DNA of 63,345 nucleotides, the filler included, from Lenisia limosa (taxonomy: Eukaryota; Protista; Breviatea): assembly GCA_001655205.1 (NCBI GenBank). It is 15 parts of 15 records of this genome, joined end to end, with 100 filler letters (N's around TTAATTAATTAA, not from the genome) between each part and the next. Parts side by side here need not be neighbours in the genome. Positions count along the whole stretch, not along the records: positions 5,741 to 7,268 come from LPNZ01009151.1; positions 7,369 to 12,243 come from LPNZ01007716.1; positions 12,344 to 14,522 come from LPNZ01009455.1; positions 14,623 to 15,902 come from LPNZ01001650.1; positions 16,003 to 19,430 come from LPNZ01000695.1; positions 19,531 to 20,804 come from LPNZ01010870.1; positions 20,905 to 22,167 come from LPNZ01004663.1; positions 22,268 to 26,766 come from LPNZ01007792.1; 7 more parts are not named here. One strand, given 5' to 3'. Each line of letters starts with the position of its first letter. Positions within the stretch are counted from its first letter, which is position 1. Of the stretch, positions 6,030 through 48,000 are shown piece after piece. Below the pieces are notes generated by a model. The model saw only the letters and a list, made by a program, of their open reading frames with translations, did no database searches and was not told the DNA's origin. The position numbers and the translations under genes are program-made.

Positions 6030-7177
6030 ATGGAGATGGAGAACAAAAACAATAAACACCTACAACAAGATGAAGAACAAGAAGAACAAGAAGAACAATA
6101 TCAACAATAACGAAAAGAAGAAGAAGGAGAAGAAAAAGAAGAACAACAACAACAATATCAATAACGAAAAGAAGATGAAGAATAAAAAGAAGATGATGAA
6201 CTGACATTGAGGCGAGACGAGAGCGTTTGGTGGAGGTGTCTCCCATCAGATCATGCTTCAATACGTGCTCAGCGNNNNNNNNNNNNNNNNNNNNNNNNNN
6301 NNNNNNNNNNNNNNNNNNNNNNNNNNNNNNNNNNNNNNNNNNNNNNNNNNNNNNNNNNNNNNNNNNNNNNNNNNNNNNNNNNNNNNNNAAGGAGCTGGGG
6401 GGGGGGGTAAAATTAGAAATAAAAAAGGCCCAATTCAACTCTGTTGGCTGACAACACGAGGGTTGAGAACAAAAAAAAGCCTTCTGTAGCACTCCAGCGC
6501 AAAACAAAAATAGAAAAATTGGAAAACTACCCGCACCCCCTTACAGGAAGTCTCACAGAAACCTCGGGGAAATGCAGAGCAGCGAGTACGTTCTTGATTA
6601 GAACCGACAGGGGGAAATGCATGTACCACATTGAGTCCTGGGGGGGGGGGTAAAATNNNNNNNNNNNNNNNNNNNNNNNNNNNNNNNNNNNNNNNNNNNN
6701 NNNNNNNNNNNNNNNNNNNNNNNNNNNNNNNNNNNNNNNNNNNNNNNNNNNNNNNNNNNNNNNNNNNNNNNNNNNNNNNNNNNNNNNNNNNNNNNNNNNN
6801 NNNNNNGAAAATTTGGAACAAATAAGCACAAATCAACAGTAAAACGAAGATAATTTCGATGAATAATATTGGCGTAAAGGTACTAATCACGAACCAAATA
6901 ATCTGAAACTAAACAAACAAAAAAAACAAGCAATGAGCAACCAACGCTTAAACTAGACAAAAGCCAGATGACAAAAACACAAAAACAAATGAAACTCAAT
7001 AAACATGGGGGGATTGGTTGTATCTGGCCGAAGCCTTAAGATATTTTGAAGAGACTTTACTGCAAAAAAAAAGCCTACGGAGAGGTCATCAATAGTGTCA
7101 ATGTTGTAGGAAACAGGCAGGTTGAGGGTGGTGAAGAAGGGGTCGTCTGCAACCACGTCCAGCCATGTGGTGCGCCA
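5741..7177 (-). CDS. Internal exons of an unknown protein
   Basis: AG/GT-bounded exons WRTTWLDVVADDPFFTTLNLPVSYNIDTIDDLS, DSMWYMHFPLSVLIKNVLAALHFPE, AEHVLKHDLMGDTSTKRS, YMPFVVQLVSKWRALSDWRK, ERRLIFGPLLHIMDRM. Confidence 0.6.
5955..6198. repeat. Intronic (GAT)n / (GAA,CAA)n microsatellite
   Basis: Direct reading of trinucleotide runs between minus-strand exons. Confidence 0.9.
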
Positions 7178-8270
7178 CTAGGGGGGGGGGGTGAAATACT
7201 GTTTTTGAAATAATAGACAAAAGAGAGAAGGCAGAGTAAAACGAAGAAAATTACCATAACACTTCGATNNNNNNNNNNNNNNNNNNNNNNNNNNNNNNNN
7301 NNNNNNNNNNNNTTAATTAATTAANNNNNNNNNNNNNNNNNNNNNNNNNNNNNNNNNNNNNNNNNNNNACAAGGGAGGAGGGGGGGTCATGAGGATCTTC
7401 ATAGATATAGTGATGAGTGATGTATATATAGTGGGTCGGTGTTAGATGAAAGGGGTTGTGAAGAAGAAATGTGTCATCAAGCTGAATCATTATTCCCTAC
7501 GTTGCCAACTGGTTAAAGTTCCAGAAACAATCAATGAAATCCGAACTCTTGCTATTGTATCAAATTTTACTAGCTTGTACTAGAATTGTGCCAAGATTTT
7601 GGTCAGTATGATAACCATGACTTCTGTTATGTATTANNNNNNNNNNNNNNNNNNNNNNNNNNNNNNNNNNNNNNNNNNNNNNNNNNNNNNNNNNNNNNNN
7701 NNNNNNNNNNNNNNNNNNNNNNNNNNNNNNNNNNNNNNNNNNNNNNNNNNNNNNNNNNNNNNNNNNNNNNNNNNNACACACACACACCTCCTCGTAGAAT
7801 GTTGCTTCACATTTTTTAGAATACTTACACCTTTCGTCGTTGAAACGCGGCCTTTTTCCGTAGCAAACAGTGGGGGGTGTTTTGTATGCATTTAGGAATG
7901 TCCCCCACCTCCTCAATCATTGTTTGTTTTGTTGTTAGTGGAGATCAGGTTTAAACTAAAATAGCTCTACTATTTACATCTATTGTTTTAAAAAGTACGC
8001 TAGAGTGTTGGGATGCGGGGCTGCAGAATGTTTGTTTTGTTGTTATCAACCCTCGTGTNNNNNNNNNNNNNNNNNNNNNNNNNNNNNNNNNNNNNNNNNN
8101 NNNNNNNNNNNNNNNNNNNNNNNNNNNNNNNNNNNNNNNNNNNNNNNNNNNNNNNNNNNNNNNNNNNNNNNNNNNNNNNNNNNNNNNNNNNNNNNNNNNN
8201 NNNNGCATTTAAGTTGCCAGCCATGGACACCCCTTGTTGTCTTTGAAAGGTTGGCCTGTCAGGGTACGAG

Positions 8271-8368
8271 TAGGGTCTCACTTCGGTTCGAAAAAGTCCA
8301 GTAAATATCGATAGTTTTCGAGGATTTATCGAGAAATTCAATCTTTTTTCGAACCAAGTGAAGCCCAA
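8271..8368. mobile_element. MITE family A (~100 bp, TIR TAGGGCTTCACTTCGGTTCGAAAAA), representative copy
   Basis: Inverted termini read directly; other copies at about 61, 520, 817, 927, 2625, 9384, 9727, 10829, 11978, 21676, 21975, 26020, 27808, 29911, 31880, 51119. Confidence 0.85.
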
Positions 8369-8417
8369 GGTGTGAGGGTTATTTATATCCACTAGTGAAA
8401 GGTTGTAATTTCACAGG

Positions 8418-10327
8418 ACTTTCACGGTACCTTACAACCGCTATTGAAAGCACCGGAACTATTCCGAATGCAGAAGAGATCCTCGAAGCCGGTCAGCCAG
8501 AAAAGTGCGGCNNNNNNNNNNNNNNNNNNNNNNNNNNNNNNNNNNNNNNNNNNNNNNNNNNNNNNNNNNNNNNNNNNNNNNNNNNNNNNNNNNNNNNNNN
8601 NNNNNNNNNNNNNNNNNNCTGACAACACAAGGTTAATAACAACAAAACATCAAAGCCCAGGCCAGTCGCTTCTGTAGCACCGCATCCCATCACTCTAGCG
8701 TACTTTTTAAAACAATATTCAGAGTGGGGCTATTTTAGTTTCAACCAAATCTCCACTGTCACTAATATCTCAGATTTTGGGCCTTTTTTATTTCATAAAT
8801 TTCCTTCGTTTTACTCCTCCTCCCCTCCCTCTTCATAGCTCTCACCCTCAGCCAACAGAGTAGATTTTGGGCTTTTTTATTTTTCATAAATTTCCTTGAT
8901 TTTACCCCCCCCCCCTCTATATAATTCACACCCCCAGTATCCGGGAAGAAGACAAGCTGTGGATGATGTTCACGTGCTCAAAATGTGACCACAGAAGCAT
9001 CAAGAGTATTTCGAAATACGCCTATCACAATGGTGTTGTTTTGATAGAGTGGGGAGGGGAGCATTTGGAAAAACACCTCTCTGAATGATTTCCTAATTCA
9101 ATAGGATATAATACAGAGAAATTCATTTGGGACTTTAGGGAGTAACGGCTAATATGAAATGCAAGCAATGTCTCACTTTCAAAAACTTATATGTCACAAC
9201 ATTTCGATATACTATTAGATATTATATAGTATCTATTAAATTTGATAAAGGTGATACCTCAAGCCTTAGTTTCATCAAAAGTTGATTTTTCAGGTGTGAA
9301 GGGTGCCAAAACCGCCATTTGATAGCCGATAACCTTGGTAGGTGAAAGGGGGTAATTACTGGTGAAAAAACTAAAGTTGAAAGTAGGGCTTCACTTTGTT
9401 TCAAAAAGAACTGTAAATTATCAATAGTTTTCGAAGTTGAAAGTGGTAAACACTAGTAGGCTTTACTCCATATTCTTATTTTACTCATATTTTTCTCTAA
9501 TTAACAGGCTGGTTTGGCGAAAAGACAAACATCGAGCAAATTATGAAGGAAAAGGTATGAGTGTGGTCAAAGAGAACGGAATCCTCCAGAATCCAAATTC
9601 AACCATCATTCAAAGCTATTATACACCCTGTTTTCAATTTATCTCTACAAACATTGTCAAGACTGATTTGGTCCATCATTTGAAACAAATTCATTCGTTT
9701 TGACCATTTCATAATTTACATACACCTAGGGCTTCACCTCGGTTCAAAAAATACCGGCAAAATATCGATAGTTTTCGCGGATTTATCGAAAAATTCAGTC
9801 TTTTTTCAAACCGAAGTGGAACTCTACCCCCCCCCCCNNNNNNNNNNNNNNNNNNNNNNNNNNNNNNNNNNNNNNNNNNNNNNNNNNNNNNNNNNNNNNN
9901 NNNNGTAGACTAGACATACTATATTCAGCCAGATACAATCTTATTTTTTTTTCTCATTGCTAAATACACTGTGTATATTAGGACACTGTGCAATTCATTT
10001 TTAAACAAATTAATTGACAAAATTTGAAATAAAGTGTCTGAAATACAATATGGCCCAGATACAACCTTGTTTTTTTGTATATACTATCAATATGATTGTC
10101 TGATATTATCTAAAAACAGATGTTATTTCAGCTTTCTACCTCCCCCTATTCTCGAACTTTTTATATCAATAAATTTTATATTCTCATCCTGTGTGCTGTC
10201 AGCCAACATACAGTAGTTGATTTGGGATTTTTGGTTTCATAGATTTTCCAGTTTTACTCTCTCCTAGGGTGAAACGGTTAAGACTGAATTTGAGGTGAAC
10301 GTCCAATCCGTTGATCCGAAAATATGA
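8418..10327 (+). CDS. ZIM17: Mitochondrial DNL-type zinc-finger chaperone (Zim17/Hep1/DNLZ); probable further upstream exons at about 7500-8265
   Basis: Spliced MMFTCSKCDHRSIKSISKYAYHNGVVLI-CEGCQNRHLIADNLG-WFGEKTNIEQIMKEK-GETVKTEFEV...*; two CxxC pairs and HLIADNLGWF signature. Confidence 0.92.
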
Positions 10328-11640: not shown

Positions 11641-12243
11641 ACAACTGGAAGCCCCTTCACAAAGCTGCTACTGGAAGACATACGGACTGTTGTCGGCTTT
11701 TGATTGAGGCTGGGGCACAAGTAGATTTTCAATTAAATAAATAACCGCCGAACATGCACAATTGGCGAAACATACACAACTGACGTTCTGACATTTGTCC
11801 GCCGGAGAATTGTGATTGATGGCACGCGATCTTTTGTTACATTTGTAACTTTTGCAGGAAATTTTCGCGTTTTTTTTTTTCTTTTTTGTTTCTTAGCGTA
11901 GCGGTGTGGTCTGCTTTCGCGGTTTATCAAGGTTGCCTCTGGTTCGTCCAGAGGGGTTTCGTGATTGGAATTGGAACTTGGGCTTCAATTCGGTTAGAAA
12001 ACCCCCGGGAAAATATCGATAGTTTTCGAGGATTTATCGACAAATTCAGTCTTTTTTCGAACCGAAGTGAAGAACTATATTCACCAGCTACATACCAAGA
12101 AAAACACAAAAACATAATTTTTTAAAAAACAATAACCATTATACCCTCGAGTCTTCACCCTCAGATAAACTCTCCGGGGCTGCAGATAAACTCTCGGGGG
12201 CTGCAGAAAGAGAGCTGTTGGTTGAAAGCGAGCGGGATCGTCT
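11641..12243 (+). CDS. Ankyrin-repeat protein fragment
   Basis: HNWKPLHKAATGRHTDCCRLLIEAGAQ matches the ankyrin consensus; later exon DKLSGAADKLSGAAERELLVESERDR. Confidence 0.65.
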
Positions 12244-12459
12244 NNNNNNNNNNNNNNNNNNNNNNNNNNNNNNNNNNNNNNNNNNNNTTAATTAATTAAN
12301 NNNNNNNNNNNNNNNNNNNNNNNNNNNNNNNNNNNNNNNNNNNTTGGGATTCTCAGAACCTCAGTTCCTGATGTTCCTTTCCCGTCAAAAGTATGTTCAC
12401 ATTTTTACAAACACTTATTGTTCATCCTCTTTTGTCTGAAGTTGTCTTTGATCAGAAGG

Positions 12460-14460: not shown

Positions 14461-14622
14461 CTTGTTTTTTGTTTAATAATCTATTAATGGTATATTGTAT
14501 ATGATATAATGTATGTTTCTGCNNNNNNNNNNNNNNNNNNNNNNNNNNNNNNNNNNNNNNNNNNNNTTAATTAATTAANNNNNNNNNNNNNNNNNNNNNN
14601 NNNNNNNNNNNNNNNNNNNNNN

Positions 14623-15902: not shown

Positions 15903-16002
15903 NNNNNNNNNNNNNNNNNNNNNNNNNNNNNNNNNNNNNNNNNNNNTTAATTAATTAANNNNNNNNNNNNNNNNNNNNNNNNNNNNNNNNNNNNNNNNNN
16001 NN

Positions 16003-17192
16003 ATAATTAACGATCAAATTTGACCTGAATATTGCTTTTGGCCTTGTCTCATCCAAGGTTTCCCTCGGTCTCCGATGTCAAGTAAGAGACTGAACGATGA
16101 GCTCATTGCTGCAGTAGGATGGCTATAGTATGAGTAATAAAGTCAGTTTATTCACAACAATAGAGTGTTGGTTTGAACTCTCTCACTCTTTCTCATCATT
16201 GATTGACCTGTTAGGTTCGCAATAATGACACGCAACAGGTTCTCTTTCTCATTTGCAGTGGTGCGGACATTAATGCCTGTGATATGTACGGCATGAACGC
16301 CGTCAAATGGGCGGCTTACGGTGTGTTGCTAACCCGTCTCATGAATGCCCTCGAGGAAGAGATCCAATATGATTGATTTTCAGGTGGCATTGATCTTTAC
16401 AAGTTGCTGAGGAGCTATAGCATATCTACTGAAGTATGTTGGTTACCTTGCATTGCCTGTAAAAAGGAGTAACCGAAAGTTTGTATTGTAAGTCTACATT
16501 CCAGCATTATGTCAAATGAATTGCAGTCCTTGTGCTGGACCTTTTTCTTGTCCATATTAGCCGTCATAATATTATACGTTAGTCCTCCTCGGTCCAAGTT
16601 GTACAATACACTTGTGTGATGTAGAGGATGTATATGCTCAGCGTGATTTGGCTTTTCAACTCACTATTGTATAACCCCACGCTTCATGGCTCCCTCACAT
16701 TGCAGGAAACAGAAGATGAAGGCGGACTGAAGAGGCGAACAGATAGCCAGCAAGACTTATCAGGGCTCAAGGGATGGCGTTCAGGTGGGAGGGGGGGGAG
16801 TAAAATTGGAAAATACGAAACAAAAAAAAGCCCAAAATCAAAGGGGGGGGGNNNNNNNNNNNNNNNNNNNNNNNNNNNNNNNNNNNNNNNNNNNNNNNNN
16901 NNNNNNNNNNNNNNNNNNNNNNNNNNNNNNNNNNNNNNNNNNNNNNNNNNNNNNNNNNNNNNNNNNNNNNNNNNNNNNNNNNNNNNNNNNNNNNNNNNNN
17001 NNNNNTCCGAGTTTTTTTTTTTCATAAATTTGCCATTTTAACTCCCCTAAGTAACAATATTGACATTCATTAATCATTATTTTTCGAAACCCCTGAGGTA
17101 CAATGATCCCATACTCATCATTGTTAGAGTCAGGTAGAGTGCCTTCTGGTTCTAATTTAGCCGACTTTGAAAGCGATGAAGAGATGGGTTAA
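16003..17192 (+). CDS. 3' part of an ankyrin-repeat protein
   Basis: GADINACDMYGMNAVKWAAYG-GIDLYKLLRSY; phase-compatible exons to ESGRVPSGSNLADFESDEEMG*. Confidence 0.7.
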
Positions 17193-20710: not shown

Positions 20711-21373
20711 GTGCAATTTGGTCCGTTGAGGATTCAGGATGTAATGTACGTTATAAGGTGCTTATTCAGTAGAGGACCCCCCTGTTCACTTCACCCCCCC
20801 CCAANNNNNNNNNNNNNNNNNNNNNNNNNNNNNNNNNNNNNNNNNNNNTTAATTAATTAANNNNNNNNNNNNNNNNNNNNNNNNNNNNNNNNNNNNNNNN
20901 NNNNCTTTTACACATTAACTGAATGTACATAGATATGATATATTATATAATATATATAGCTATATGATATATAAGTATATAGTATATTATATATTACACA
21001 TATTATATGATAGACTATACATATGGAGATGTGTAAATTTGTTGAGAGAGGGGGGGGGCACTTTGTGTTTAATTTTTGTTGAAATTTTTCATTTTTACAG
21101 TGATGGGATGCAGTGCTACTGGCCTGGTTTTGTTTGTTTTGCTTTGAACCCTTGAAATTATGTTTTTTTGGGGGCTTTTTAGTGTTTCACAAATTGTCCA
21201 TATTTNNNNNNNNNNNNNNNNNNNNNNNNNNNNNNNNNNNNNNNNNNNNNNNNNNNNNNNNNNNNNNNNNNNNNNNNNNNNNNNNNNNNNNNNNNNNNNN
21301 NNNNNNNNNNNNNNNNNNNNNNNNNNNNNNNNNNNNNNNNNNNNNNNNNNNNNNNNNNNNNNNNNNNNNNNNN

Positions 21374-22167
21374 TCAACGCTCGATTTTCATGCCTTTATC
21401 GCGCCTATAGGTATGAGAACAGTTTCAGTTCCAATATTTCCTTCTCCCTCGGTAGAAATTGAAATTCATGGGAGCAGCAGAATTGTGCAGTGGGTGGTTG
21501 AAAATACTGTGATTTGTTAAGAACAATTAACCCCTCGAATCATTCTTCCCAACCCTCACATGGGGCGCTCAGGTATAGTAGCCATAATACAATAGTATGA
21601 TCTACGGTACAAAGGCTATCGTATAGTACACTATATTGCATAAATCTAAAACAAACAACCCCAGATACGATTTTTAGAGCACTTTCGGTTCCAAAAAGAG
21701 TGAAATCTCAATAAATTCTCGATAAATATCGATATTTACCGGTGTTTCGGAACCGAAAGTGAAGCTCAACGATTTTGTCATCGTGCTGCAGAAGCGACTT
21801 CCTAGGCTTTGTTTGTTTTGATGTTATCAACCCTCGTGTATGTCAACAAACAGAGTTGATTTGGGCTTTTTTGTTGTTTTATAAATTTCCAATCATTTTC
21901 GGTTCCAAAGTACATCAAGAATATCGATATTTATCGAGAGTCTTTTATAAAGCGAAGCTCTAGTTACTACCCCTAAAACTTCGGTTCGAGAAAAGTCTCG
22001 ATATTCTCGAAAACTGTGGATATTTTATTGGTCTTTTTTGGAGCTGAGTGAAACCCAAGTCACCCTTCAGGTATTATTTTGTCCGTGGTGACCGTAATTT
22101 GGAGGTTATGATGCGGGCGGCTAAACTCTTTGTCGGCGACCATGACTTCCGAAACTTCTGCAAAGTG
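21374..22167 (+). CDS. PUS3: tRNA pseudouridine 38/39 synthase (TruA family), fragment
   Basis: NARFSCLYRAYR|YYFVRGDRNLEVMMRAAKLFVGDHDFRNFCK with a phase-compatible intron. Confidence 0.88.
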
Positions 22168-22267: not shown

Positions 22268-22450
22268 GAGGTCCTGGACTGGTGTGCCTCTGCCTCTGTT
22301 GCCCCCCCTAACACAGAGATCCTGGTGTGCCTCTGTTGCTCCCCCTACCACAGAGGTCCTGGTGTGCGTCTGTTGCTCCCCCTACCATATAGGTCCTGAT
22401 GTTCCTCTGTTGCTCCCCCTACCACATAGGTCCTGATGTGCCTTTGTTGC
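22268..22450 (-). repeat. 37-bp tandem array (~5 copies) duplicating a DDB1 exon end and its donor site
   Basis: Unit CCTGRTGTGCCTCTGTTGCTCCCCCTACCACAGAGGT read directly. Confidence 0.9.
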
Positions 22451-26350: not shown

Positions 26351-26589
26351 AGATGGTGACAGTAATAGTGATGATAATGATGATTAATGATGATGGTGAT
26401 GAAGATAATGATGATGGTTATGATGACGATGATGATGGTGATGATATGATTCGCCAAACATTCTTTTTATGTTTTTTTCTGATTTCTTCATAGAGTTCGT
26501 TCTTGTTAATTGTATATTGGCTTGCAAATTGTATATTTGAACCAACAGGTGTAATAAGTTAAACAAGGAACTAGAAGCCCTTACAGTGT

Positions 26590-26766
26590 CCTACTATATC
26601 TTCAAAAACATACTATATCTTCAATAACATACTATATAACATACTATATCTTCAATAACATACTATATCTTCAATAACATACTATATCTTCAATAACATA
26701 CCTTCAATAACATACTATATCTTCAATAACATACTATATCTTCAATAACATACTATATCTTCAATA
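26590..26766. repeat. 19-bp minisatellite (CATACTATATCTTCAATAA)n at a contig end
   Basis: About 9 near-perfect head-to-tail copies, no spacers. Confidence 0.9.
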
Positions 26767-32385: not shown

Positions 32386-32477
32386 AAAAAAAATTTGTTC
32401 TCAATGTTATCTTTTATATTGAGAATTTTTGAAGGATATTTCTTCCTACAATATTCTTCGTCGAACTGCCCATGGCT

Positions 32478-32599
32478 TCATCCCTCCATTGTTTTCTGAC
32501 GGAATAGGTTCGAATGTGGTTCGACATTCATGAGAAACACGAGTTCAGCAACAAACATGTTGAGGATGCCGAAGCCAAGGAGAACGAAGAGAAGGAAGA
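32478..32599 (-). CDS. Terminal exon of a membrane protein
   Basis: Pyrimidine-rich acceptor then VFLLFVLLGFGILNMFVAELVFLMNVEPHSNLFRQKTMEG*. Confidence 0.5.
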
Positions 32600-33049
32600 C
32601 TTTAAGGTGGGTGAGAAGCAAAATAGGCGCGCAGGGGGGTAATTGAAACAACCTTCCTTCAGAAAATCTCTANNNNNNNNNNNNNNNNNNNNNNNNNNNN
32701 NNNNNNNNNNNNNNNNTTAATTAATTAANNNNNNNNNNNNNNNNNNNNNNNNNNNNNNNNNNNNNNNNNNNNAAACAAAAACAAAAAAGCAAGAAAAACA
32801 CGAGCAACCAACGTTAAAACTAGAAACTACAAAACCATAGCCCAGCCTAAGTGTCCCACCTCCGTGTGAAACGTGTAAACATGAAAATAATTATGAAACA
32901 AAAAGCCCAAAATCAACTATGTTGACTAGAAGCCAGACATTCAGGCAGGAGATTGGTGAAGTTGGAATTCGATAAGGAAAATAATCGGAGTGGGCGTACC
33001 GGTGCTGTGTGATTAATGGTTTCTCCAACAACGCGGATCATATAATATA

Positions 33050-36000
33050 GCAATGAGAAATTCATAAAAAGGTTGTAACTGGCCGAAGCCGTCGGCTTCA
33101 TTTTGAAGTTTTCATCTGCATTTCAGTCTGCTGGCATTTTTGCGGACTACTCACTCTCTGACGTTGAGTTACAGCTGCTGAGGGACATTCAGCCCACACT
33201 GCTGTCACTGTCCTGAATTCAGAAGATGGTTGGTTGGTAGTTTTTAAGCCAAGCCCGAATGCATGGTCAATTTTCACAGTGGAAATGAGTAATCATGTGC
33301 TCGAGGCAGAAATCATACTTTTCTTGCTTGAAGAATAGCCCACGAGTGTACATTATTGTTTTGTCACCAATTTCAGGTCGTAAATATTCAACAATTGCTG
33401 ACATCGTTGGACAGTGTATTTCAATTTCGTCTTGCGTCGGTTGGGAACAGCACTGTCCCCCCCCCCCCNNNNNNNNNNNNNNNNNNNNNNNNNNNNNNNN
33501 NNNNNNNNNNNNNNNNNNNNNNNNNNNNNNNNNNNNNNNNNNNNNNNNNNNNNNNNNNNNNNNNNNNACGTTGATCGTATGCAACCACTTCCGTCGCGAC
33601 GTTGTTGAGTCCTCCTCTTGGCTGGCTAGGCAGGCAGGGGGCAGGCAACTTAACAGAAAGAAGGGGGCAAAAGGACCGCTACTCTCAGAGCTCCTCAATC
33701 ACCCCCGCATTTCTTACGGTCTGTGGTTGAGGGGAGGGAGATCCTAAGGAAATTCTACGTTCACATTACCCAGGTTTTTTTGGTTGGTAAGACAGTGAAA
33801 CGAGGGTGAGCTATCGTGAGGCACTCCTTGAACCTCCTTCCTGAATCTCTTCTAGAAAAACACGAGGACTGAAAATAACAAAATAAACAAAGCCCTCCCA
33901 TCAGTTTGAAACTGTTGGAAATAACAACAAAACACTGTCGGCAAATCTGTTAAGAAACACACAAGGGGTTTGAACCCAACGAAAAAAGTCCAGTCACTGA
34001 TGAAGGACCAAAACCGAAGATGGGGGAATAAAAACTTGAATATCTCGGCTTTGATGTATCAACAGAACTATTTGGTGTATGATGATGTCTGCATGGGATT
34101 CGTTTTATTGGGAAGATTCTGAAATAATTTGATGATGAAGATAACCCTGGTGAAACCGCATATAAAAAGGTCAGATTCGTCCAGATTAAAAAAAACAACA
34201 CCTCCAACCATAACCTGTGGGAAGTCGTAAATGGTATACACAGCTCGGATCCCGGCTGCTTTGAGACATATCCCCTGAGACACCAGCCGAGTGGACGACA
34301 ACCATGGCGGTGCTGCGGCTACGGGAGTAGTCAGATGTATCACAGGGAACACTTGGTAGTGTACGATGGTAAGTTGTGTGTCAGCATTGGTGGAGTATAT
34401 GATGGTAAGTTGTGGAGTATTTCTTTATTATAAGCATTGGTGGAGTATTTCTTTATTATGAGCCAACTGCTTTCCACCCAAATGTCACTGATTCATACAC
34501 CTATCCTCTAATAAACATACAGTTGTCTCCATTCATTTATCTTTCTCCAATTATTTCCATACAGGCATCTATCCTCCAACACCCTACAAGTATCCTCCAT
34601 CGTGTCGTCAACGAACACATCTCTGGGTGTTTCATCAGGGGTATCATCAAAATCTGTTGTGGAGTAAAAGAAAAAATTGTGAACAAAAAAAAAAAAACCC
34701 AAATTTAACTGTATTGGCTCAACATTTGAGAAAACACGAAGGTTAAAATCCACATAAAAAAGAATTACCCCCAAGCAAGTTGATTTGAACTCTTTTGGAG
34801 TGATCGTATGAAGTGCGAATAGACAAAAAAAGTTGATTAGGAGAATTCTTTTGATATCATTTACACATCTCAAAACAAAAATAAAAGAAGAAATTAACAG
34901 GACAAAGAGACAGGACGAAAGCAAGGTTTCAACTGGGGGAACCATTAAGGACAAACTCAAATAGGAGGAAGATAGGATGGGGATTGGTGAAGACTGTTAT
35001 TTATTATGTGACATGACCATTTTGATTGCCATATTCCCGCCAAATCTGGAAACCGCAGAGATGAGCCAAAGAATAAGAAGCGGAAACGAAAAATACTAAT
35101 TGCACGTTGTGGAACAGCAGTTGATGAGCGTTCAATCAGCAGAAACCGAACGACAACCCCCTGCTTCGCCTTTTGTTTTTCTTTTTGATTTGGTAGTGAT
35201 AAAAAGAGTGGTTTCAGGCATTTACCAAGTTGAAACCCCAAAATGAAAGAAAATAACTTTGTAAGACAAACAAAACCCAGGTAGTGTCACTGCAAGGAGA
35301 TATTTGGAAAATGCCATTAGGCAAAACAGGATATCTTACCATCATCAAGGTTGCCATTGAGCGGAGAAAACACCTCATTCTGGTCTAGATTGGGGGTCTT
35401 CGGTTCAACACTATCGGGTACAGGCTATAGTCATAAGAATCACCATAAAGATCAAAGTGGCAGGGATAGTACAAAGGCCCAACAGCTGGTATCGTATAAA
35501 TCAGTCATATTTTTGTTCACTGAGTTCTGATGTACAAATTTCTATGATCTCTTTTCAACACCAGTTTCATGAAATAAATAGAAAATATATGAAATATGAT
35601 AGATAATACATGTAATGAACCGTACTCCTCCCCCATACTCCCCAGTCCAGTCCGGGATGAAGATGAATACCGATCTCGGCGTCCACTACTTCAACAACAA
35701 TTGCAGGTCTGGGGGTGAAATAACAAAAGATGCATCAGGGTTAAACAGTAATGGATATGTGGGGGAGGACGTAATAAACCAGATTCTGTTTCATATACTA
35801 CAGAAAAAATTTCCAAACCAACAATAACCTGTGAATTGCTCAAATTCAGTTCTTCATCACCCCCCCCCCTCTAACCTTGGCCGGCCCGTGGGCTGGGTGA
35901 ATGGCTTGGCCTCCTGCTCGGAACTGAAGTAGTCGGGGAGTAGAACAGGGCGGTCTGGACTGGTGTAAAACCGAGGAGGGAGAATCGAGGAGGGAGTAAA

Positions 36001-39000
36001 AAGGTAACAGTCAGTAATTTCGGTATCAATCACCATTCATACCGCCCAGTTTGCCCTGATCAGGTGAGGAGTTTGACTGCACACGCGTGCGCAGTATCAC
36101 GCCACCCTCCATGATTTCTTTGGTCCAACTAATTGGCGATTCATCCTCAGCCCTGACAACCTGATTGCGTGAGGGGATGCGGGTAGAACTGGAAAAATTA
36201 TGAAATAAAAAAAAAGCCCAAATCAAGGGTGGGAGGTTATTAAAAAAAGCCCAAATCGGCAACATTTCAAAAGGTTAAATAACAAAAATAAAATAGGCAC
36301 TTGTTGAAAGAAGTTCAAAGAAGCGTCCACCCAGCAAACAGGCGGGGACGGCGTTGTCGGCACATCACCACCACCAAGCATTTCAGGTATGTCCGCCCTT
36401 AGGTCCTTCTTGACCTGCTTCGTTGACTGCCCCGAGAGGCCAGGTCCGCTCGAGGGCGACATTTCTATCACTAAAGAGTGGGGGGTCGATCAATAAAGCG
36501 TCTTGGGTTAAAATGGTTTACGGCACCCCAACACATTCATGTGTTACATTCAATACCTTCATTCATAGCCCATAATACCTTCATTCATAGCGAGGGATAA
36601 GGCCGATAGTCCGGTGACGTCCATGGAAACCTTCCCTATATAATGAGAAAAACACAGCACCACCAATTGTTGTAAAGAAGAGAGGGGAAAAGGAATACTT
36701 GCACAAACACAAGATATAACCTCGTAAAGCACCAAATTAGAGTTCGAGCGCCTTGCATCCATACCTTCACTTTCCTTATTAGGCAGGTCGTCCTCGGGCT
36801 CATGGAAGAAATCCGAGTCAGCGTTGATGCTGCTGGAGGGCGACGGGACGGACGGGGGCTTTTTTGAGGGCATTGTCTGAGGGGTGAGGGTTTTGGTTGG
36901 TTTCGGGTTTAGTACCGAGGTGGAATTGCGAGTAGCTTAATGAAGATGAAGATATTGACTTTGGTGCGAAAAAAAAAAAAGAAAAAGAAAAAGAAAAACA
37001 AGGATACCCCCCCCCCTTGTTCCCCGGTATACCGCAGACGCCCGCGTGAGGTCGGACATGATGTCTCCGCTGTCCTCTGTTTTCTCGGGTACTCCCTCAG
37101 CCTTGATGGTGAGTAGTAGTGGCGGATTGAAACAGGGGGGGGGGGATTCAAAATGCAGCAGAAGAGCATAAGACAGTATACAAGGCTTGATATGTTTAAA
37201 TAAAAGAGGATTTGACTCTGCCCTTAAATTAGAACTATACAAATGAATGACGTGACCCCCCTCCCCCTTTTTTGCAGTAGAGTCTCTTTTGAAACTAGGC
37301 TCACAAAGATCCTGCAGCTGAATTGAACATAAAGACCACTTCCCCCTCGGACCTGAGAAGCCAGGTCCTGGGCCATCATTTTCGCTGTTTGGATCGGCGT
37401 TGGCTCTCCTTGATTCGGTTATTGAAGGAGCTCTCAATTTTATGAAACAAAAAGGAAAAACCTAGAGTCACTGCACCGTCCAGCTGAAGTTGTACAAAAA
37501 GTATCAGTGAAAATAACACCGGATTGTATGATACAATACCGCCCATCCCTACCGGGAATAAAGAGGTCTCGCCCCTCTCCCCAATAGGACACAAGCGTCA
37601 GGAAAGTGTCGAAACTGTCTGAGCACAAGTCGAGGTTGACGCCCTGGCAAAGTAAACACAGAAAATAGACTGACATTGAGAAGAGCAATTTATGTAGGTT
37701 TCCCCCTGCTTTCCTTATCCCGAGATTATTTTCTTTTTTTTTAAAAAAAGCAAATTTCTTTCTGAAAAAACGGTAAAGAAACAATTTGAAACGCAACTAC
37801 CCACAGCCCCCGTCCATATACCACGACCATCATTGACAATAATCACCTGCACCTCTCACCAAGGGTGTGACATTGACCACAAGGTTGGGCCCCACGCCTG
37901 GCGGATCGTTGACACGAAGGAAAACGTCCAGAGAGGTGAAGGAGGCTACCTCCACAAATCGACGTCTCAGCCATGGTGCTTGGGGGCTGAGCGGTGAAGA
38001 TATGGTGCTTGTGTGGAACTCAAATGTGACCGTTAAGCACAATTGTAAATTCCAATGGGATATTTGAGCATATTCTTTCTTGTAAACTTCAATGTGACCT
38101 TTGAGCATTTTGACACAATTGTACCGATAGATAGCACCAATTGTGCTGACTTCCCATCGCCAACTTATTTGACGAACACTCCTCTGATGGAATATCAAGA
38201 ACATGTCTGCTGTCAGATATCAGCATCATGTGACCGTCTGGGAAAGGTGGGAGTAAACTTGGAAAATTCATGAAACAAAAAAAAAACCCAAATCAACTCT
38301 GTTGGCTGACAAACGGGTGGATAACAACAAAACAAACAAAGCCGAGGTCAGTCGCTTCTGCAGCATAGCATCCCATCACTCCATGTTTAAATGGAAAATG
38401 TCACAAAAAAACTCAGAATCAACTCGGCTGGCAAAACATTTTGAAACCCAAAAGGGTTGAACACAACAACAGAGAGCCCAGACCATCTGTAGCACCATTC
38501 AATCACTCAAGTGTACTGTCAGATGGTATTGGCTTGAAATAATAACTTAATGAACACCCAAATAATTGAGGAGAAGTACTACTGCACATCATCCCTCCTC
38601 ACGATACAAACCCTCACAAATACAGGTCTCATCCACGCACCATTTGCTCGAATGTTGAACCCTGCCGTCGCGGCACCGGCAACCAGGTTTGACGCTACTC
38701 GGATTTCGCCAACAGTTACAATCGTTTGGCTCGGAAGGTATACGGGCTGGGCAGGTTAGACAGTAACAAGTCTATGTTACGAGGGGTATAACACTGGTAC
38801 AAAAACAAAACAAAAAAAACAAGGCAATTTCATATCATCCAGAAGGAAATCAATAATTTTAAAGAATCTCATGAATGTTGCCAACACCTCGCACTTTGTA
38901 CTCAATAGATGAGTTGTGCAGTGAAACGTAGAGGTTCATCAACTCCCTCCTATTTTTGGACGGCTCTGTTTTGACGTCATTCGGCTCTTCTGGGGTGGGT

Positions 39001-42000
39001 GCGGAGCTTGGGCTGCCAATATAAGATAATTGGGGGAGTAACATTGAAAAAATAATGAACAGAAATAGCCCAAATTAGCTCTGTTGGCTGACAACACTCG
39101 AGAGTTGATAACAAAACAAAACCCAGGCCGGGGACAGTATGTGAGCAAAACGAAAAAAAAAATATTAATAGTGGTGGTAGTGGGGTAATTAGCCAGATAG
39201 ATAGCAAAATGAGAAGAGTAATGGTGGGGTATATAGTGCATGATAGAAGCCAAATACGCAGTGACCGGATAAGTCTTGACCGATTTGCTATGTGGTTTTC
39301 CTAGGAAAATAAGTCAGACCTATCCCGGTCACTGTATATGCTCCACCCACGTTGTAGTTGACCGGGGGCTGTCAATGTCTTCATACGGTTCCGAGGGGGT
39401 GAACGGAGGGTCCGAGTCTTCACTGTTCATCATTGCTGTGGGAGGGGGGTGACCTTGGAACTGGTTCGACAGTTTCATCAGATAAAGAAAATATAAGAAA
39501 GTAAAATGAGAAATATGTAAAATTGTCTTCCGGGTATTACATTAAACTCAAAGAAGCCCCCTCTAATCCTCTATAGTCTTCTACCCAAGCGTACTAGGAG
39601 ACTGCTGCGTAAAGGGCCGCGAAGTATTGTCATTGAAATAGTCCTCAATCTAATCCGCTATAAAGGGTTTAAACAAGCAAGATACTTCCTATAGTATAAG
39701 GTCTTCATTTAAAAATTGTAAAGTAATCTGTCTATGCTGTATGTTAATATATATTATATGATATAGTATATGTGGGTCCTCAAAGCTCCGGACACCATTC
39801 AAAATTCCCGGACACATCAAAACTCCCGGACAGCTTGAAGTTAATGCCTTGTATAGGCCATTGCTAGTGTTTTTTGAAAATCTGTTTCGACAGATGCAAA
39901 GAGAAATGGTCCTCCTCATGTTCCCTAACTTTTTTCAATTTTGAGCAAACGTCAAAAATCCGTGAATTTGGTCTCCCGGGGTCCCCCTTTTGCCTTTTTA
40001 CAGGATTTTTTTCTGAATCTTACCCTCTTTAAGTGTTAAGAAACAAAAATTTGCACCCCTCGGAGTATTTGGTTCCGGGTTCCACTTTACTTTGGCTATG
40101 GAATTTTGAGAGAAAATTGCTCAAAATAGCACTGTCTACAAGGGTAAAATTTCCCGGATAGTTGCCATTTATTCCTTGAATGTGGCCTTTTATAACGGTT
40201 TTTGCTTGTTTTTGACAGTATTTGGACCATTAACAGAGAGCTCAGGGACTTAATTTGGTTTTGACCCGACAATATGTTAAATTGGGGTTTCATGCTTTAA
40301 TTAAGATTGAGATTACTTTCGAAAACAAAAAGGAAATAGGGTTTTTGGGTGGTTTATGGTGATTGTGTAGGGGAAAACTCAAGCTGTCCGGGAGTTTTGA
40401 TGTGTCCGGGAATTTTGAATGATGTCCGGAGCTTTGACTATACATATTATATATATTATAGATACTATATGATATATATTTGTTTGCCTTGACTTTTTTT
40501 TTACACTTTCTAGCAATCAAAAAAAAAAGCACATCTAGTACATATGATATGTCAAATAGCATAAATGTGCTGGTATACATATATCCTATTAGAATGCGGG
40601 CCAACCAGAACAGTGTTTTCTGGGAAGTCACCGCCAATTGGCAAAGGGACCGGATGGGGGGTTGCTTCAGCAAAAGTGTTCAAAGGAATTGACTCGTCAA
40701 TCTGAGAGGGAGGGTAAAAAAAGATACATAATAACCAGAGGGATTGTAAAAAAGAAAATAAACAGGCGAATTGGTTGACAAAAAGAGTGATAGTGATGGA
40801 AATCCATTTTGTGTGACAACAGAAGGGGGGTATGAGACTACTTTGGGTTACGCCCCTGCTCACAGGTCCTTGTGTGACCTCCTCCGACGGGAGAGAGAGA
40901 ATGCCGATGATGCGCATGAGCCAGTCCGAACCTGACACGTGGTGCAATAGTCGGTCATGCAGCTGTATTGTGAAGGACGCAGAGAAAAGGTTCAGGATAG
41001 GGGGGAAGACAAACAAGCAGAGATAATATATATAGAAACAGTGGTGATGGTAAATTATATGTGACATCCTACCGCGATAATCAAATTCGAGTCAGAGATG
41101 TACTTGGTGTTATCCGCATTAGAGACCAGGGTGATGGACAGGGCGGGTGGTGAGGACGATGCAACTGTTGACATTGGGGAAGGCACTAAGACGTCAACGT
41201 GACAGCTGAACAATACGACCGTGAAAATTGGGATGCCCCAACAGCACAATTACAGTAACTCTCTATGGTAGACTTGTTCATATATTCCGCCTCTAAAAAA
41301 ACATTTCTTGAATATCCCATGAAACACCTCGACAGTCACCTCGACAGTCACCCTCCTCCACCAACCAGAGGGTTTAGAGGTGGACGCAGTGGGCGAGTCG
41401 ATGATGATGGGAACACGCAAAGGGTCGTGCTCTCCTCCGCAGACGGTGTTGACGCTGACAGGTGGTGTGGGCTGTGGACGTTAACAGTTTATGAGAGTAG
41501 ATCATATTAGGTTTAAACACCCAATTATTTCTCGCACAAATCTATTACGTAGCTGTCTGTGTGCCTCCCCAGTATAACTGATAGCAGCTTTGGTTTGATT
41601 TCCAATCAATCTCTCGGAGCCCTAATAAAAGTAACAATCTTTCGTCCTAACCCACCCATCCACTTCCGGGGGGAAGCTCAAAGAGAGACGCACTTTGTGC
41701 AACTATGGCGGTGAAATCAGGTTATTTTGACTGTCATCAATAGAAAAAAAGCAGTTAGCATCAAACAACCATTACTTACTGATATTGAGAGTGCTCACTG
41801 GCCGCCCTCCCAAGTTACTAACCTGTTGCGTTAATATCGGAATAATAGTGGAGATGGAGTCAGAAAAAGGCAATACTATCAAGAATGGGGAGATTAGAAA
41901 CATAATATTCAAACAAAACTACAAAAAAAAAACAACATTCAAAATTCATTGCAATACAAAGTATCGCCCCATACTGAAAGAACCTCCAGGTTGCTTCCCT

Positions 42001-45000
42001 CAATTTCGTAAGAGAACTTCCCAATGGGGATAGCAGGCATGGCTTCATGGAAAGGCGGTGTAATAATGGGGGTCTGGGGGGTGAGCTGATAAATGGCGGA
42101 ACTAATGAAACAGGCTCTAGCACAAATAAAGCTGAAGACAAAGAGAAATGGCTTCCTTCGCTTAAGCCATGATGTATTGAACTCACCATTGAGTCCTCAT
42201 GCAAAACAACCAGTACAGAGGCCACGGAGACTTTGATGGAAAACACAGTGCGAGTAGCCGTGGACGGCATCAGTGCCAATCTAAAGATTAGAGGATGCTG
42301 TGGTGATATTCATGATATCATGGTAATGGATGTGGTGACATTCATTATAATATGGTAATGGATAGCTGTGGTGATATTCATGATATCACGGTAATGGATG
42401 TTGTGGTGACACACGTATCCATGAAAACAAGAAGAAGTATGATCAATACAACAATACAAGAGAGGATGGTTGTGGTTGTTATGAGAGTAAGAAAATAGAG
42501 TATGGTTGTGGCATGACATAAGCGCACCACCCCCAGTTTCAGGTGCATACGCATGGTGAACACCAGTATCGACCACGGTGTCTCCAGCCATTGTGGGGTA
42601 GCTCTGGTTTCCTTCAGAGGGGGGCATTACCTGGGCGGAGGGGGGAGTGAAGTAAAGGAAATTTCAATGAAGATTGGCGAAAAAATAGGGAGGGAGGTTG
42701 ACAATTTTGAAACAATTGGGCGATTTAATTATTGATTTTTTTTCAAAATTCGGAAACTGGTCAACTTTTCAAATTTTGAGAAGTTCAAAATTTTAAAATT
42801 ATCTTTATACAATATGAAGGAGTTTGAGGTGGATGATTTTGAGTAGTAGGTCTGCCTCTGAGTCTTGCAGACAAACTTGCTTCAACAAGCAAAATTTTGG
42901 CAACGAAAATTGTTCATGATGGTCCCAGCTCAGCTCTCTCCCTTGTACCATACTATGTACATTCAGTGTGCTTACTTTACGAGATGCCCTTTTAAAAAAC
43001 TCCAATAGATATAACCCCGACCTCCTTATAAAGTGGAAAGACTTGATAGATATGATATTTTACAAATAATATCTTTATTATCGTTAATGACATTAGTGAG
43101 GGTGATGAAAAGTTAAACTGAATCTTTGCGAGATGTTTTTTCCAATATTTGATTTTTTTTTTTGTTTTTTTTTTTNNNNNNNNNNNNNNNNNNNNNNNNN
43201 NNNNNNNNNNNNNNNNNNNNNNNNNNNNNNNNNNNNNNNNNNNNNNNNNNNNNNNNNNNNNNNNNNNNNNNNNNNNNNNNNNNNNNNNNNNNNTTTTGAA
43301 GAATATCAAAATTCAATTATTTTTAAAAAAACCACAACGGGGGATAAATTTGATCTGACTAAAGGTGTGTGAATCCTACAATCGATCCGATCGGGATATA
43401 GCACTAATAATAATAGAATAAAGAGATTGTTTTTTTGAACTAAAACAAATTTCAAAGTATGGAAGTGTCATGGACAATGGAACTCATAGCTGTAGTTCAC
43501 TCATTGTGCTTGGATATTTAACCACAAAGCCTGGTGATTCTGACGCCGGGGGTGTGCCGTACACGGAAATACAAAATTGTAGACGAAAAGAGAAAAAAAC
43601 AAAAAAAAAAAAANNNNNNNNNNNNNNNNNNNNNNNNNNNNNNNNNNNNNNNNNNNNNNNNNNNNNNNNNNNNNNNNNNNNNNNNNNNNNNNNNNNNNNN
43701 NNNNNNNACCCTCTCACCACAGACTCCCCATAAGTCCCAATAGAAGCCGTGTCATCAGGCCCAAAGAAGGAAGCCGTATGTGCAGACGCCGCCGATCGGT
43801 TGGAGTGCTTGAAGGTTCCGAGGTACTCCGTGATGGTTGGCTCGCCCAGTTCGGTTACCAAGGTCACCGTATCGTCACGATCAGCAAAATGCACCTTGTT
43901 CGGGTCGTCTTGACAAAGTTATGGAATCATTGAAAATAAATGGGAAATTTTCAAACTTAAAATTCCAATTAATCAAAGAATCCAAAAGAAACACCATCCA
44001 ATCTCACCCAAGGCAGCAACAAATACAACCGGGTTTGACGTTGGCTGGTCAAAGGCGTAGAACGCTTCTTCAAGGCGGCCTGCTATGTGTCGTGACTGAG
44101 GGGGTCAGAAGTTTTGCATTTGTCTGTAGGGTACATGTATTGTTCAGAAGAAAAAATACATTGTATGTGGTCTAAGCAAGATAATCACTACACTCCCTCG
44201 ACTATCATAGTGAATACAAATGGAGAACACACCCCCCGATCAGTCTCTCCCAGCTACAGCAGACCTTTGGCGCGTTCGAAAAGTTTTTGCGGGATATAGT
44301 TCCGACATATTCCGCCAAATGCCTGAAGGGTTCAGAAGAGTTTGGGTTTTTCAAGCTACTGGTTCAATAATATGATGCTTGGATTTATGTTCATCACAAG
44401 GTAATGGGTGGAAATAAAACATTATTTTGCTTGCTAAAAAATTCAACTGTTTTTGAAAGGAAAAGCTGAGTTCATGTTAGCACAGTACTGATGTATGTCA
44501 TTCACATATTAAATGGAGCCGTCCCCACTGCTCCTGCCCTGTTCTCATGGTTGTTGTGGGAGCAAGCGTTACTGCCAAACTAAAAGAATAAGATCAGAAC
44601 ACAAACAACAGGGGATATGCGGTGTCAGTAATAGCATTAGTCTATAACCAATAACCCACTCTTTGGGTTTACTGTAATTGAAAAAAAAGAAGAGTAAATC
44701 TTCCACCCCGTCAAATATTGAGCAAAGATCCCCTTCAACACAATTGTTACCCCCAACATACGTACACATTGGCATCGCTGCCATTAGTTTGAGACGCGCT
44801 ATTTCTGCTGCTGCTGCCGGCTCGTGATCATCAGCAAGATTATCCAACATTGACAGGATAGACTGGGGATGACGATGAGGGAGTAATAATGTTTAAATCA
44901 AGAGATATCCTACAGAATGATTTAAAAAGATGCTCTCAGACTCACGCGATAGTCTTCAGCCGCAATATCAGCCGAAACAGACACCATTGACAGCTCCACA

Positions 45001-48000
45001 TGCGTCATGGTGTTGCTATAAGATCAGTATGCTTTTCTGTCCATAAAGTATTTGCGCTAAAACAAAAACAAAATATAATCATATTATCAGAATGAAGCCA
45101 TTGCCTTTTCTCAAGGGCATTCCGCAACCTACAGCATGACCTGTGCAGTGTAGGCCGCAATATCTTCACGGTCCGGTCCACGAGGAGCCGACTGCTCACT
45201 GTCAACTGTCACCACCCGCGAGGACCCGAGGGGTAGCCCTGGTGCGGCTGGGGAGGGGGGGTAATTGAGAGACTTTTACAACGAAGTAAAAATATTATGT
45301 CAGCCTCGGGACTATTAATGTAAAACAAACTCTTCGAAATGGTTCCTTACTAAAACATATTCCTATACCCAAATGATATAAATGCTTACGGGGCGGCTCA
45401 TCAGTCACGGGATTCAGGTGGATGTCAAGTTGCACGCCGTGACCTTGGGGATGTAAAATTGGAAAATTGATGAAACAAAAAAAACCCAAATCAACTCTGT
45501 TGGCTGACAACACACAAGGGTGACCTTGGGGGAGTAAAATAAATTGAGATGGGGAGGGGGTGGAGCAATAATGTTGATANNNNNNNNNNNNNNNNNNNNN
45601 NNNNNNNNNNNNNNNNNNNNNNNNNNNNNNAATGTTGTATAGAGCTGTGATTCCAATTTGTTGATAAGACGCCAGGCTAACCGTTGCCTTGCTCTGGTCG
45701 AGCAAAGAGAATTCGTTTGGCAACAATGCATTGCTCCACTTCTGGAGAGAATCAAAGCAAAAATACAACAGCTGGGTGGGGAGGCTAAGCCATAGCCCCT
45801 CTCACGTGTCGTCCTGGGGGAGACGAGTTCCGGAACCGCGTCCGGATCGAAGAAGTCCGACGGCTGTCTGACGGGGCTCTCGCGTGCCGCCATATCTGAG
45901 GATGAAGAGGCATACACGGCGGCGGATAGTCCTAGAAGGGTAATGCATGAGGACATTCCAGGAATACAGGGATTTGGGGTTCTAAAGAATAATACAAAAT
46001 GTATCATAATAACAGGTGGAAGCGCTATCAAGCTGATTGGGTAAAAACAAAATTAGTCGCTTGTAAAGTACATAAATTATGCAAATGAAAGAATATCAGT
46101 TTTGATATACTATAACCTTCCAAAAAAAAAAGTCTGTCCATTGCATCGCTAGTTTCAAACCTTTGAGGGTCATGAGGGGTGGTGCCATTGAAGAATCCAT
46201 AACTGCACTTGAGTTGGTGATCTGACACTCTGGGAGGGCGTAAGATTAGAGAGGCCAACTGGTAACAAAAGAGTAAGGTGACGAAGATCAGCAATCAATC
46301 ACATGAACGTACCAAATAAAAACCTGTATAAATCCTATACAGCCAATCCACCATCTTGATGCTAGTCCAGTATACCTCGAATGGCCACAGCAAGGCCTTG
46401 GTCAAGGATCGCGGTAGGGTGTCGTAGACCGCTTACCTTTTCGGGGATATGCAGATCAACCTGGGGTAAGGTGAGAAACTGGTTTCGACAAAGCCAATCA
46501 GCCTCTGCTGAATCAAAAAATGAAAAAATCAGAAACTCAGAAACACTATGTGAATGTGAATGTGATTTTTTTTTGTTTATGTTTTTTTCTTGCTGCAATA
46601 CACAATAAGATCTTCAAAAAACAATCGCTAATACGTATGGATTATATACATTACCTTGAAACATAACCCTACTCTACTCCCAACCAACCTCTAAAAGGGA
46701 CGTATACACACTGACATTAAATGGGGGCGACTGTAAACATAAGGACTGGAGAAAATATGGTTTAAAAACATAATCAACATAAAATATCTAAAAAACATAT
46801 CAGCCTAACCACCAACATCGGAAGCCTCGCCGGAAGCGGCAGCAGACTTCTCGGGACCCGAACCAAAAAACGCAGCCAATCTATCCACCGTCCGAAGGTC
46901 GACGGTGGCATGGGCCGGGGAGACGTGCAGTGATAAGGAAGGGCACTCGGAGTCGTCCAAGCTCTCGAGGTCCGGCTCGCCATAGGGCGTTTCGGGAGGC
47001 GTTTCTATGGAGTAAGTGGAGTATTAATGGGGTGGGGGGGTTGGAAAATTTATGAAACAAAAAAGCCCAAANNNNNNNNNNNNNNNNNNNNNNNNNNNNN
47101 NNNNNNNNNNNNNNNNNNNNNNNNNNNNNNNNNNNNNNNNNNNNNNNNNNNNNNNTCCAGCGTAAAAAGAAGGAAATTTAACAAAGAAAATTATGAAAAT
47201 ATTGGTGGGGTAGTGGGTACTCAGAATGATGAATTGAGAGAGAGAGGAGAGATGTAAACAAACAGTTGCATAATTTCGCGAATTTCCCGATTTTACCGAT
47301 AAAAACCAAGCCAACCTCTGCGGCCGAGAGGAAGACGTAGGTTAAGCTTGGCAACCGTGACAGACGGGTTGACTTCCAAATGCGGCGCCGCGACCGGGAA
47401 GGGCAAGTGGCGGGATGGAAGGTCGACGTCAGGGTCCCCGAGGGTACCCGGGGGTTCGGACATCCATTTTAGGGACTCTGCAACTGATATGGCCTGGGAG
47501 GGAGGGGGGTCAGATGGAGGGAGATACACAAAAAAAGAGGAATGGAGGCAAATTGGAGTTCCACAAAGAAAAAAAGCTTCATGGACATGAATATCTGCAA
47601 TTTCAAATATAAACAATTAAACAAGACCATACCTCGGGAAGAATTGAGAGTAAGGGCCGAGACTCACGCAGCGGCGGCTGGAAGTCGTCGGGAGATGAGC
47701 TGTTGCGCATCTGAAGAGTAAACATGTTGTTGAAGACCTCTCATTCAAAAACATATTCAGCTCTGTCAATTTTTTTGATCAGTTTGCCGATATATCCCAT
47801 TTCATGAAGCCTCTCAATGACATCCTCATTTGGACAGAGTAAGTGGCGAACGCTTATCTTGCCCCCCCCCCCCACCTTAGCCCGTCTGATGATCTCCGAC
47901 TTTTGCACTTCGGGCTCCAGAGGCATTGTTTCCGTCATGCCCAGGCCGGCTATCGTAACGTCTGCCTCGAAGAGCGAGTTGAGGCTGAGGACAGTTCGGG

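Follow-up and report, generated by a model that had tools for sequence, protein, structure and literature searches.

In a 63,345-nt stretch of the Lenisia limosa genome (hereafter the window; 15 stretches of a 49.0-Mb assembly of 11,727 contigs from this intron-rich eukaryote), copies of one short repeat, termed B, lie at the 3' ends of introns. The locus thereby raises the question of whether such a repeat creates introns, seeks out their acceptors or merely survives where it is compatible with splicing. An earlier note on this DNA had listed 11 acceptor AGs in the window, each following a sense B end. All 11 were confirmed, and a gene model in which B was masked starts exons directly after 10 of them (Table 1); the sites were described as lying on independent contigs, which holds in part, as they fall on four stretches and six of them are in one gene. 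Taken together, the evidence below indicates that B settles, in sense, in the branch-point and acceptor region of introns that were there before it.

Exons and introns were predicted with a self-trained model in which repeats were masked and whose acceptor matrix was built from acceptors not adjacent to repeats; the predictions are not RNA-verified, and they matched three of four RNA-supported exon pieces to within 2 nt, the fourth ending 6 nt further. B was mapped with a profile made from its 30 best genomic matches (144-nt core), for which the reversed sequence gives 0 matches. The control was family A, a miniature inverted-repeat transposable element (MITE) of about 100 nt with TAGGGCTTCACTTCGG-type terminal inverted repeats (TIRs). 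The main set of loci comprised 59 long sequences (775 kb), many of them chosen for containing a B match, and the held-out set comprised 59 loci (376 kb, with 103 matches of MITE A) that were chosen via ankyrin or tubulin matches and blind to B.

In the main set, intronic B matches were in sense in 115 of 120 cases, as against 72 of 141 for MITE A, and matches with an intact 3' end lay within 30 nt of an AG in 37 of 65 and 11 of 122 cases, respectively. Among the held-out loci, 29 of 30 B matches were sense (MITE A, 51/101) and 12 of 15 ended within 30 nt of a predicted AG (MITE A, 8/81; Fisher p 7e-8); a stricter model using the 4 nt before the exon gave 29/30 and 10/16 for B. Had B ends been placed uniformly within their introns, 9.0 of 55 would be expected within 30 nt of the AG, and 33 were found there; for MITE A, which occupies intron interiors in both orientations, 20.5 of 122 were expected and 15 found. 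The earlier argument that random MITE insertion would not produce such a pattern is borne out by a MITE that lacks both biases, and the observation extends across the genome. The pattern is also visible when gene models are set aside: of the first 29 loci with the exact 3' 22-mer of B, 26 have a tail rich in C and, within 40 nt, an AG, after which the sequence is GC-richer (0.52 vs 0.42). B was present in 23 of 781 held-out introns. The strand preference is strong and not absolute: antisense copies make up 17 of 309 intronic matches (about 5%, hence 95% sense), and the claim that all copies are sense had to be given up for the window itself, where two antisense pieces were found. A search for an antisense-at-donor pattern returned 36 matches, several of which are sense acceptors whose C tails satisfy the pattern.

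With regard to its anatomy, B is a non-coding repeat that opens with a donor-like GTACGC, continues through a GC-rich and then T-rich body and ends in TTTTAC(T)CCCC. The 3' end is fixed at the branch-like TTTTAC with its C-rich tail, and the 5' ends are truncated, leaving copies of 31 nt upward; the size of about 150 bp given earlier is close to that of the core, most copies being shorter (31-138 nt for the pieces in the window). The initial GT scores 5.4 as a donor, the median predicted donor scoring 5.6, and full-length B looks like a whole putative intron, from GT donor to branch motif. The 5' boundaries of 128 copies (19 of 147 having been excluded for N's or a short flank, with long copies over-represented) lie at this GT in 18 cases and beyond it in 6, the remainder being scattered across 31-142 nt. 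Among 30 loci with the exact 5' motif, 2 run on into a unit upstream, 4 follow another B end and 24 follow other sequence. As a separate observation, AC stands immediately before the initial GT in 11 of 30 full-length copies (L051-L080), as if a branch motif had been joined to a donor, and TTT or TTTA does so in six more.

The 61 near full-length copies deviate by 8.4% from the consensus, with a pairwise divergence of 15.2% where a star would give 16.8%, and the closest pair differs by 4.7%. Because of this near star-like divergence, the B copies are, as judged from their alignment, an old burst from few masters. The exact 3' 22-mer occurs 427 times genome-wide, and 113 matches combine it with a strict CCHAG end, a few of them double-counted; extrapolation from the held-out density yields about 4,000 copies in 49 Mb as a lower bound. 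Contig depth is about 540,000-610,000 over B and 600-1,200 over the upstream unit (single copy about 32), figures that do not represent a copy number. This longer unit, seen where some 30-47 loci extend up to 450 nt upstream of B, contains segments resembling exons and introns, and a B end precedes it in at least five loci. A shallow RNA run from the same study contains no spliced joint across it, a blank that carries no evidential weight, and its exon-like frames gave no Pfam match of note and no Atlas lead.

Head-to-tail chimeras of B with itself or with a second repeat, family C (BB, BC and CB), are common, and internal deletions are many. Self-comparison of the unit gave no TIRs, both full ends seldom being present together; no tRNA or polymerase III B box was found in B or the unit, Rfam had 0 matches over B in five loci or over the unit, leaving a snoRNA (C/D or H/ACA) unsupported, a hammerhead was absent by motif (no CTGANGA on either strand of the unit) and by Rfam (0 matches), and a metagenome scan for the B 5' motif gave 0 matches. 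Family C, which ends in the same TTTTAC and C-run and is often joined to B, is sense in a ratio of 67:14 and lies within 30 nt in 33 of 58 cases (held-out, 8:3 and 4/9), and it was found in 10 of the 781 held-out introns. A possible third module (..CAAAAACAGTATTT(T/C)AC-CCCC..AG) stands directly at the acceptors of two unrelated genes (7186-7226 and 54023-54063, both minus strand), and another intronic family (C6671:20577-20731 and related loci) has an orientation ratio of 76:32 without acceptor bias, in a cluster that may mix families.

The 3' end of B fits the branch layout of this genome. Repeat-free introns contain a branch-like YTHAC with its A at -9/-10 in 418 of 1,777 cases, and in the predicted gene models the branch-to-AG distance is narrow (peak 9-10 nt) and introns start G-rich and end C-rich. 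U2 snRNA contains the canonical branch-pairing sequence; eight near-identical U2 genes were noted (L325-L329 and three more contigs). A constrained distance from branch point to AG has been reported mainly from intron-poor lineages (PMC2483917); the narrow spacing is the same here, whereas the present genome is intron-rich and has a weak branch consensus. Among 108 measurable B ends, the A lies 9-16 nt from the intron end in 44, 17-60 nt in 37 and further in 27. A further branch-like motif, at -8 to -13, is missing from all 19 ends at 17-22 nt and is kept in 12 of 18 at 23-60 nt (in two of these it is another B end), and for this reason B is predicted to serve as the branch point where it lies near the AG and, where it lies further away, to sit on the upstream side of the old one. 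Runs of at least four C's are present at 84% of 87 B acceptors, as against 16% of repeat-free acceptors. Since the B-free tubulin paralogues have no C-runs at the acceptor, the tail seems to arrive with B rather than to pre-exist, which would still leave room for a choice of target. The C-run and branch-distance counts thus support the earlier proposal that B extends introns, in the form that their 3' ends are lengthened or rebuilt by B, in many cases with a branch motif and tract of its own. The companion claim that B supplies the branch point needs narrowing: at four of the 11 window sites (8936, 36161, 39013 and 47005) the interval from B to the AG contains a separate branch-like motif at -9/-10, and these introns may not depend on B for their branch point.

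The introns that contain B appear to be the older partners. In those with homologue cover, 9 of 12 match a B-free intron in both position and phase (other introns, 305 of 490), a comparison of small size drawn mostly from ankyrin repeats and tubulin; both B introns of the alpha-tubulin gene on C4454 have counterparts in the paralogue on C10309 that are short and lack B. A start no more than 15 nt from a predicted donor was seen in only 6 of 185 B copies. As far as sequence can tell, the B-bearing introns predate B and B is not an introner, and the proposal that B creates introns is contradicted by the same counts.

The individual window copies are compiled in Table 1. The gene names BOP1, ATG2, ZIM17 and LplA derive from the labels of the earlier note, from reading of the predicted proteins and from Pfam matches, which were obtained for zf-DNL (exon after 8937), WD40 (exon after 28446) and LplA exons; the ATG2 exons tested were without a Pfam match. 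A protein query with one short exon hit a single WD40 protein, which showed no alignment to the predicted proteins at E 1e-5. The acceptor at 10266 was missed by the gene model and was fitted by eye, with the frame MKEK|GETVK. At 45444 the 12-nt acceptor sequence is duplicated (45520-45531 and 45439-45450); either AG keeps the frame, the upstream one adding 81 nt. The RNA contig that begins in the ATG2-like gene has its next intron spliced, and zero contigs of this shallow run bridge any B acceptor, a blank without evidential weight. The intron at 16785-17130 seems to contain both orientations of B, antisense at the donor G-run and sense at 17011-17047 beyond a gap of N's. Tandem repeats of 37 nt (22291-22475) and 19 nt (26567-26766) were seen at stretch ends.

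Table 1. B copies and related features. Exon start, first model exon position after the acceptor; A, branch-like adenosine counted from the intron end; N gap, gap of N's. Positions refer to the window except in the last row.
Position	Strand	Feature	Exon start	Remark
6395-6498	-	B copy 6406-6498, C tail, acceptor AG 6395-6396	6394	B TTTAC is last branch-like motif, A at -14
8776-8937	+	Two partial B/C ends (8776-8825, 8848-8906) before ZIM17 acceptor 8936-8937	8938	Separate branch-like TTCAC at -10
8619-8703	-	Antisense 5' part of B, same ZIM17 intron as 8776-8937		Exception
10184-10267	+	B copy with the acceptor before the last coding exon of ZIM17		Assigned by eye; A at -12
16794-16840	-	B 3' end antisense to + ankyrin-like gene, 15 nt past donor G-run		Exception
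28408-28446	+	B 3' end (remainder in N gap) and BOP1-like acceptor	28447	A at -10
29640-29741	+	B, then C module and C-run, then N gap		
30128-30204	+	B middle part before N gap		
31170-31232	+	Degenerate B 3' end and acceptor 31231-31232	31233	
34654-34780	-	B copy and ATG2-like acceptor	34653	RNA contig begins at 34653
36161-36226	-	B 3' end	36160	Separate branch-like CTCAC at -10 before AG
38238-38516	-	Two near full-length B head-to-tail (38389-38516, 38250-38387) and acceptor	38237	A at -17
39013-39130	-	B copy	39012	Separate branch-like CTTAT at -10
45439-45531	-	B copy flanked by two copies of 12-nt acceptor sequence	45443	Target duplication
47005-47071	-	B 3' end	47004	Separate branch-like CTTAC at -9
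2166-2406	+	C-B-B compound cluster before N gap		
7995-8058	+	B 5' part before N gap		
21097-21893	+	Two further sense B copies (21097-21204, 21783-21893)		
32877-32928	-	B 3' end outside predicted introns, near contig end		
42631-42686	-	Family C module		Ends 7 nt before acceptor
2166-2242, 6839-6928, 29694-29741, 42638-42686		Family C in window		
8269-8364, 9726-9821, 11977-12072, 27812-27890		MITE A in window		Also at many other loci
L152:1213-1780, L335:1-500, L336:4567-5972		Long unit, about 595 nt, exon-like/intron-like segments		Another B end before it

To account for these properties, we consider it an even chance that intron RNA was reverse-transcribed in trans into the branch-point regions of existing introns. 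A fuller version, which we regard as less likely than not, is that one spliceosomal intron turned retro-mobile with the splicing reaction as its targeting device, and that the branch point and tract of thousands of older introns were replaced or doubled in this way. The template would be excised or unspliced intron RNA from one or a few source loci; a non-LTR (long terminal repeat) reverse transcriptase would prime at its C-rich 3' end and usually halt early; and, in the weakest of these steps, the host transcript or the spliceosome near the branch point would set the site, for example through a break or a stalled cDNA, rather than DNA sequence alone. An RNA template and a site defined by transcript or spliceosome are preferred because neither plain C-run targeting nor the loss of antisense copies by selection agrees well with the data (see below). 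Insertion would then be mostly splice-neutral, with B serving the old AG as branch point and tract or adjoining the old branch point upstream.

Several observations weigh against this RNA-templated route. No intact non-LTR reverse transcriptase was found, and none sharing sequence with B, in a search limited by the fragmented assembly. Target duplications of at least 8 nt are not in excess (6/143 vs 6.1 permuted), B has no poly(A) tail, and tail length is scarcely related to copy youth (rho 0.18, p 0.06). The long copies cross the donor and retain intron-like parts, which is impossible from excised intron RNA. Among 289 flanks there was no closely alignable empty site, just diverged paralogues, and 65 of 202 copies with known distance lie more than 45 nt from the predicted AG, in part as tandem modules or owing to missed exons. 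The reliance on self-trained gene models counts on the same side. In favour of the route, LINE-like (long interspersed nuclear element) reverse transcriptase remnants do exist, at three broken loci; they are degenerate and show no similarity to B nearby or to the long unit. The broken loci noted (L181, L182, L185 and L220) comprise these three and one Gypsy-like. A group II intron-type reverse transcriptase frame was also seen (L180, on the 1,148-nt contig C6086) and may be bacterial or organellar.

Copying at the DNA level, in which breaks at C/G-runs near acceptors are repaired via short homology from another intron 3' end by templated insertion or gene conversion, with no reverse transcriptase, is rather unlikely in our estimation and is nevertheless the alternative that fares best. 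It would fit the few target duplications, the many internal deletions and chimeras and the intron-like parts kept in long copies, and CCCC is found in 28 of 161 5' flanks as against 38 of 2,475. However, sense G-runs are as frequent in introns as C-runs (1,245 vs 1,035 in 2,234 introns), so that about half of the copies should be antisense; even if a branch motif followed by CCC is taken as the target (168 sense vs 81 antisense), a third should be, far above the 17 of 309 seen. The star-like divergence without close pairs and the sharp GT boundary also fit a master RNA better. The suggestion that B targets C-runs is therefore insufficient by itself, antisense C-runs being as common in introns as sense ones.

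It is improbable that B is an ordinary non-autonomous element which inserts broadly and of which only the splice-harmless copies survive, antisense and mid-intron sense copies being lost through cryptic acceptors. Antisense full-length B does carry an acceptor whose score of 6.8 places it at the 75th percentile of those predicted, no B was found in 288 kb of predicted exons (a result biased by masking), and some antisense and mid-intron copies are present. Yet copies without the cryptic acceptor are equally biased (159 sense, 7 antisense), those far from the AG remain 57:8 sense, and MITE A fills intron interiors both ways; the 43.5 kb of predicted intergenic DNA contain 0 B, a weak contrast because MITE A is also scarce there (2). 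Survival only where splicing permits, as the note had also suggested, may thus contribute, and it does not account for why truncated copies and those in mid-intron are also sense-biased.

That B is the non-autonomous partner of a Helitron or other DNA element, with a fixed end and a captured gene fragment, we regard as very unlikely. One fixed end and no target duplication, as in B, suit rolling-circle elements, the long unit looks like part of a gene, introns included, that was captured, and the genome holds an open Helitron-like frame of 1,928 aa (L330, on the 7.3-kb contig C9147; it reaches the contig end and has short tandem repeats upstream). On the other hand, the best match between the unit and this contig, whose 3' end is not assembled, has an E of 0.5, the unit has no CTRR end or TIR, and the sense bias towards host genes is not accounted for. 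Finally, the creation of new introns by B is barely credible: full-length B does have a donor, branch motif and tract, a copy on C8624 fills nearly a whole predicted intron and one predicted intron (L053) begins at the B GT, but B rarely reaches the donor and most of the introns that could be compared, including both in one alpha-tubulin, are shared with B-free homologues.

Work on intron-linked mobile elements has treated them as a source of new introns, and surveys discard insertions into introns already present. Here at least two families, B and C, settle at the intron position expected to be least tolerant of insertion and apparently regenerate its signal. If the route is RNA-templated, these families would form a genomic record of spliceosomal intron RNA copied to DNA at scale, a process long proposed and scarcely documented, and branch points and pyrimidine tracts could turn over horizontally inside one genome. 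If the mobile-intron origin is true, a few percent of the splice acceptors in this genome would have been rewritten without added introns, through a spread that reuses splice sites rather than generating introns.

Compared with known systems, B lacks both the TIRs and the fixed-length target duplication of MITEs and other TIR DNA transposons, and it lacks the polymerase III RNA-derived head of short interspersed nuclear elements (no B box, tRNA or Rfam match). Retroposons mobilised by LINEs, retrocopies among them, and site-specific non-LTR elements have a constant 3' end bearing a simple tail, 5' truncations of varying extent, star-like divergence from a master gene and chimeras, all of which B shares; it differs from them in having no tRNA, 5S or 7SL head, a C-rich rather than A-rich tail and no regular target duplication, and in targeting the branch region in sense, not T-rich DNA or one repeated gene. 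Penelope-like elements and retrozymes resemble B in tandem partial repeats, 5' truncation, intron retention and, in endonuclease-deficient forms, G/C-rich priming, whereas the B unit has no hammerhead and no Penelope open reading frame was seen, no reverse transcriptase search having been aimed at Penelope.

Intron circles made by the spliceosome have been proposed as transposition substrates that would insert whole introns (PMC11146597). They run from the GT to the post-branch tail, and their tail-to-GT head-to-tail junctions resemble some BB junctions; trimmed circles of yeast, however, retain a 15-20 nt tail where B junctions have 0-9, and such circles are a possible source of the B template by analogy. 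With introners, B has in common that it is a repeated family of hundreds to thousands of copies tied to introns, in sense and with splice-like signals (PMC9860276, PMC12130899, PMC11282704). An introner creates its intron and reaches nearly to the splice boundary on either side, and the survey excluded secondary insertions in pre-existing introns (PMC9860276); B, in contrast, is confined to the 3' region of older introns and 5'-truncated, and it falls outside that definition because most of its host introns that could be compared are shared in B-free form and it rarely reaches the donor. Our literature search found no earlier description of a family at existing acceptors, and its coverage was incomplete, so that absence from print is not shown by it. 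Set beside these systems, B is a mobile, non-autonomous repeat whose kind of target is new and whose mechanism we infer.

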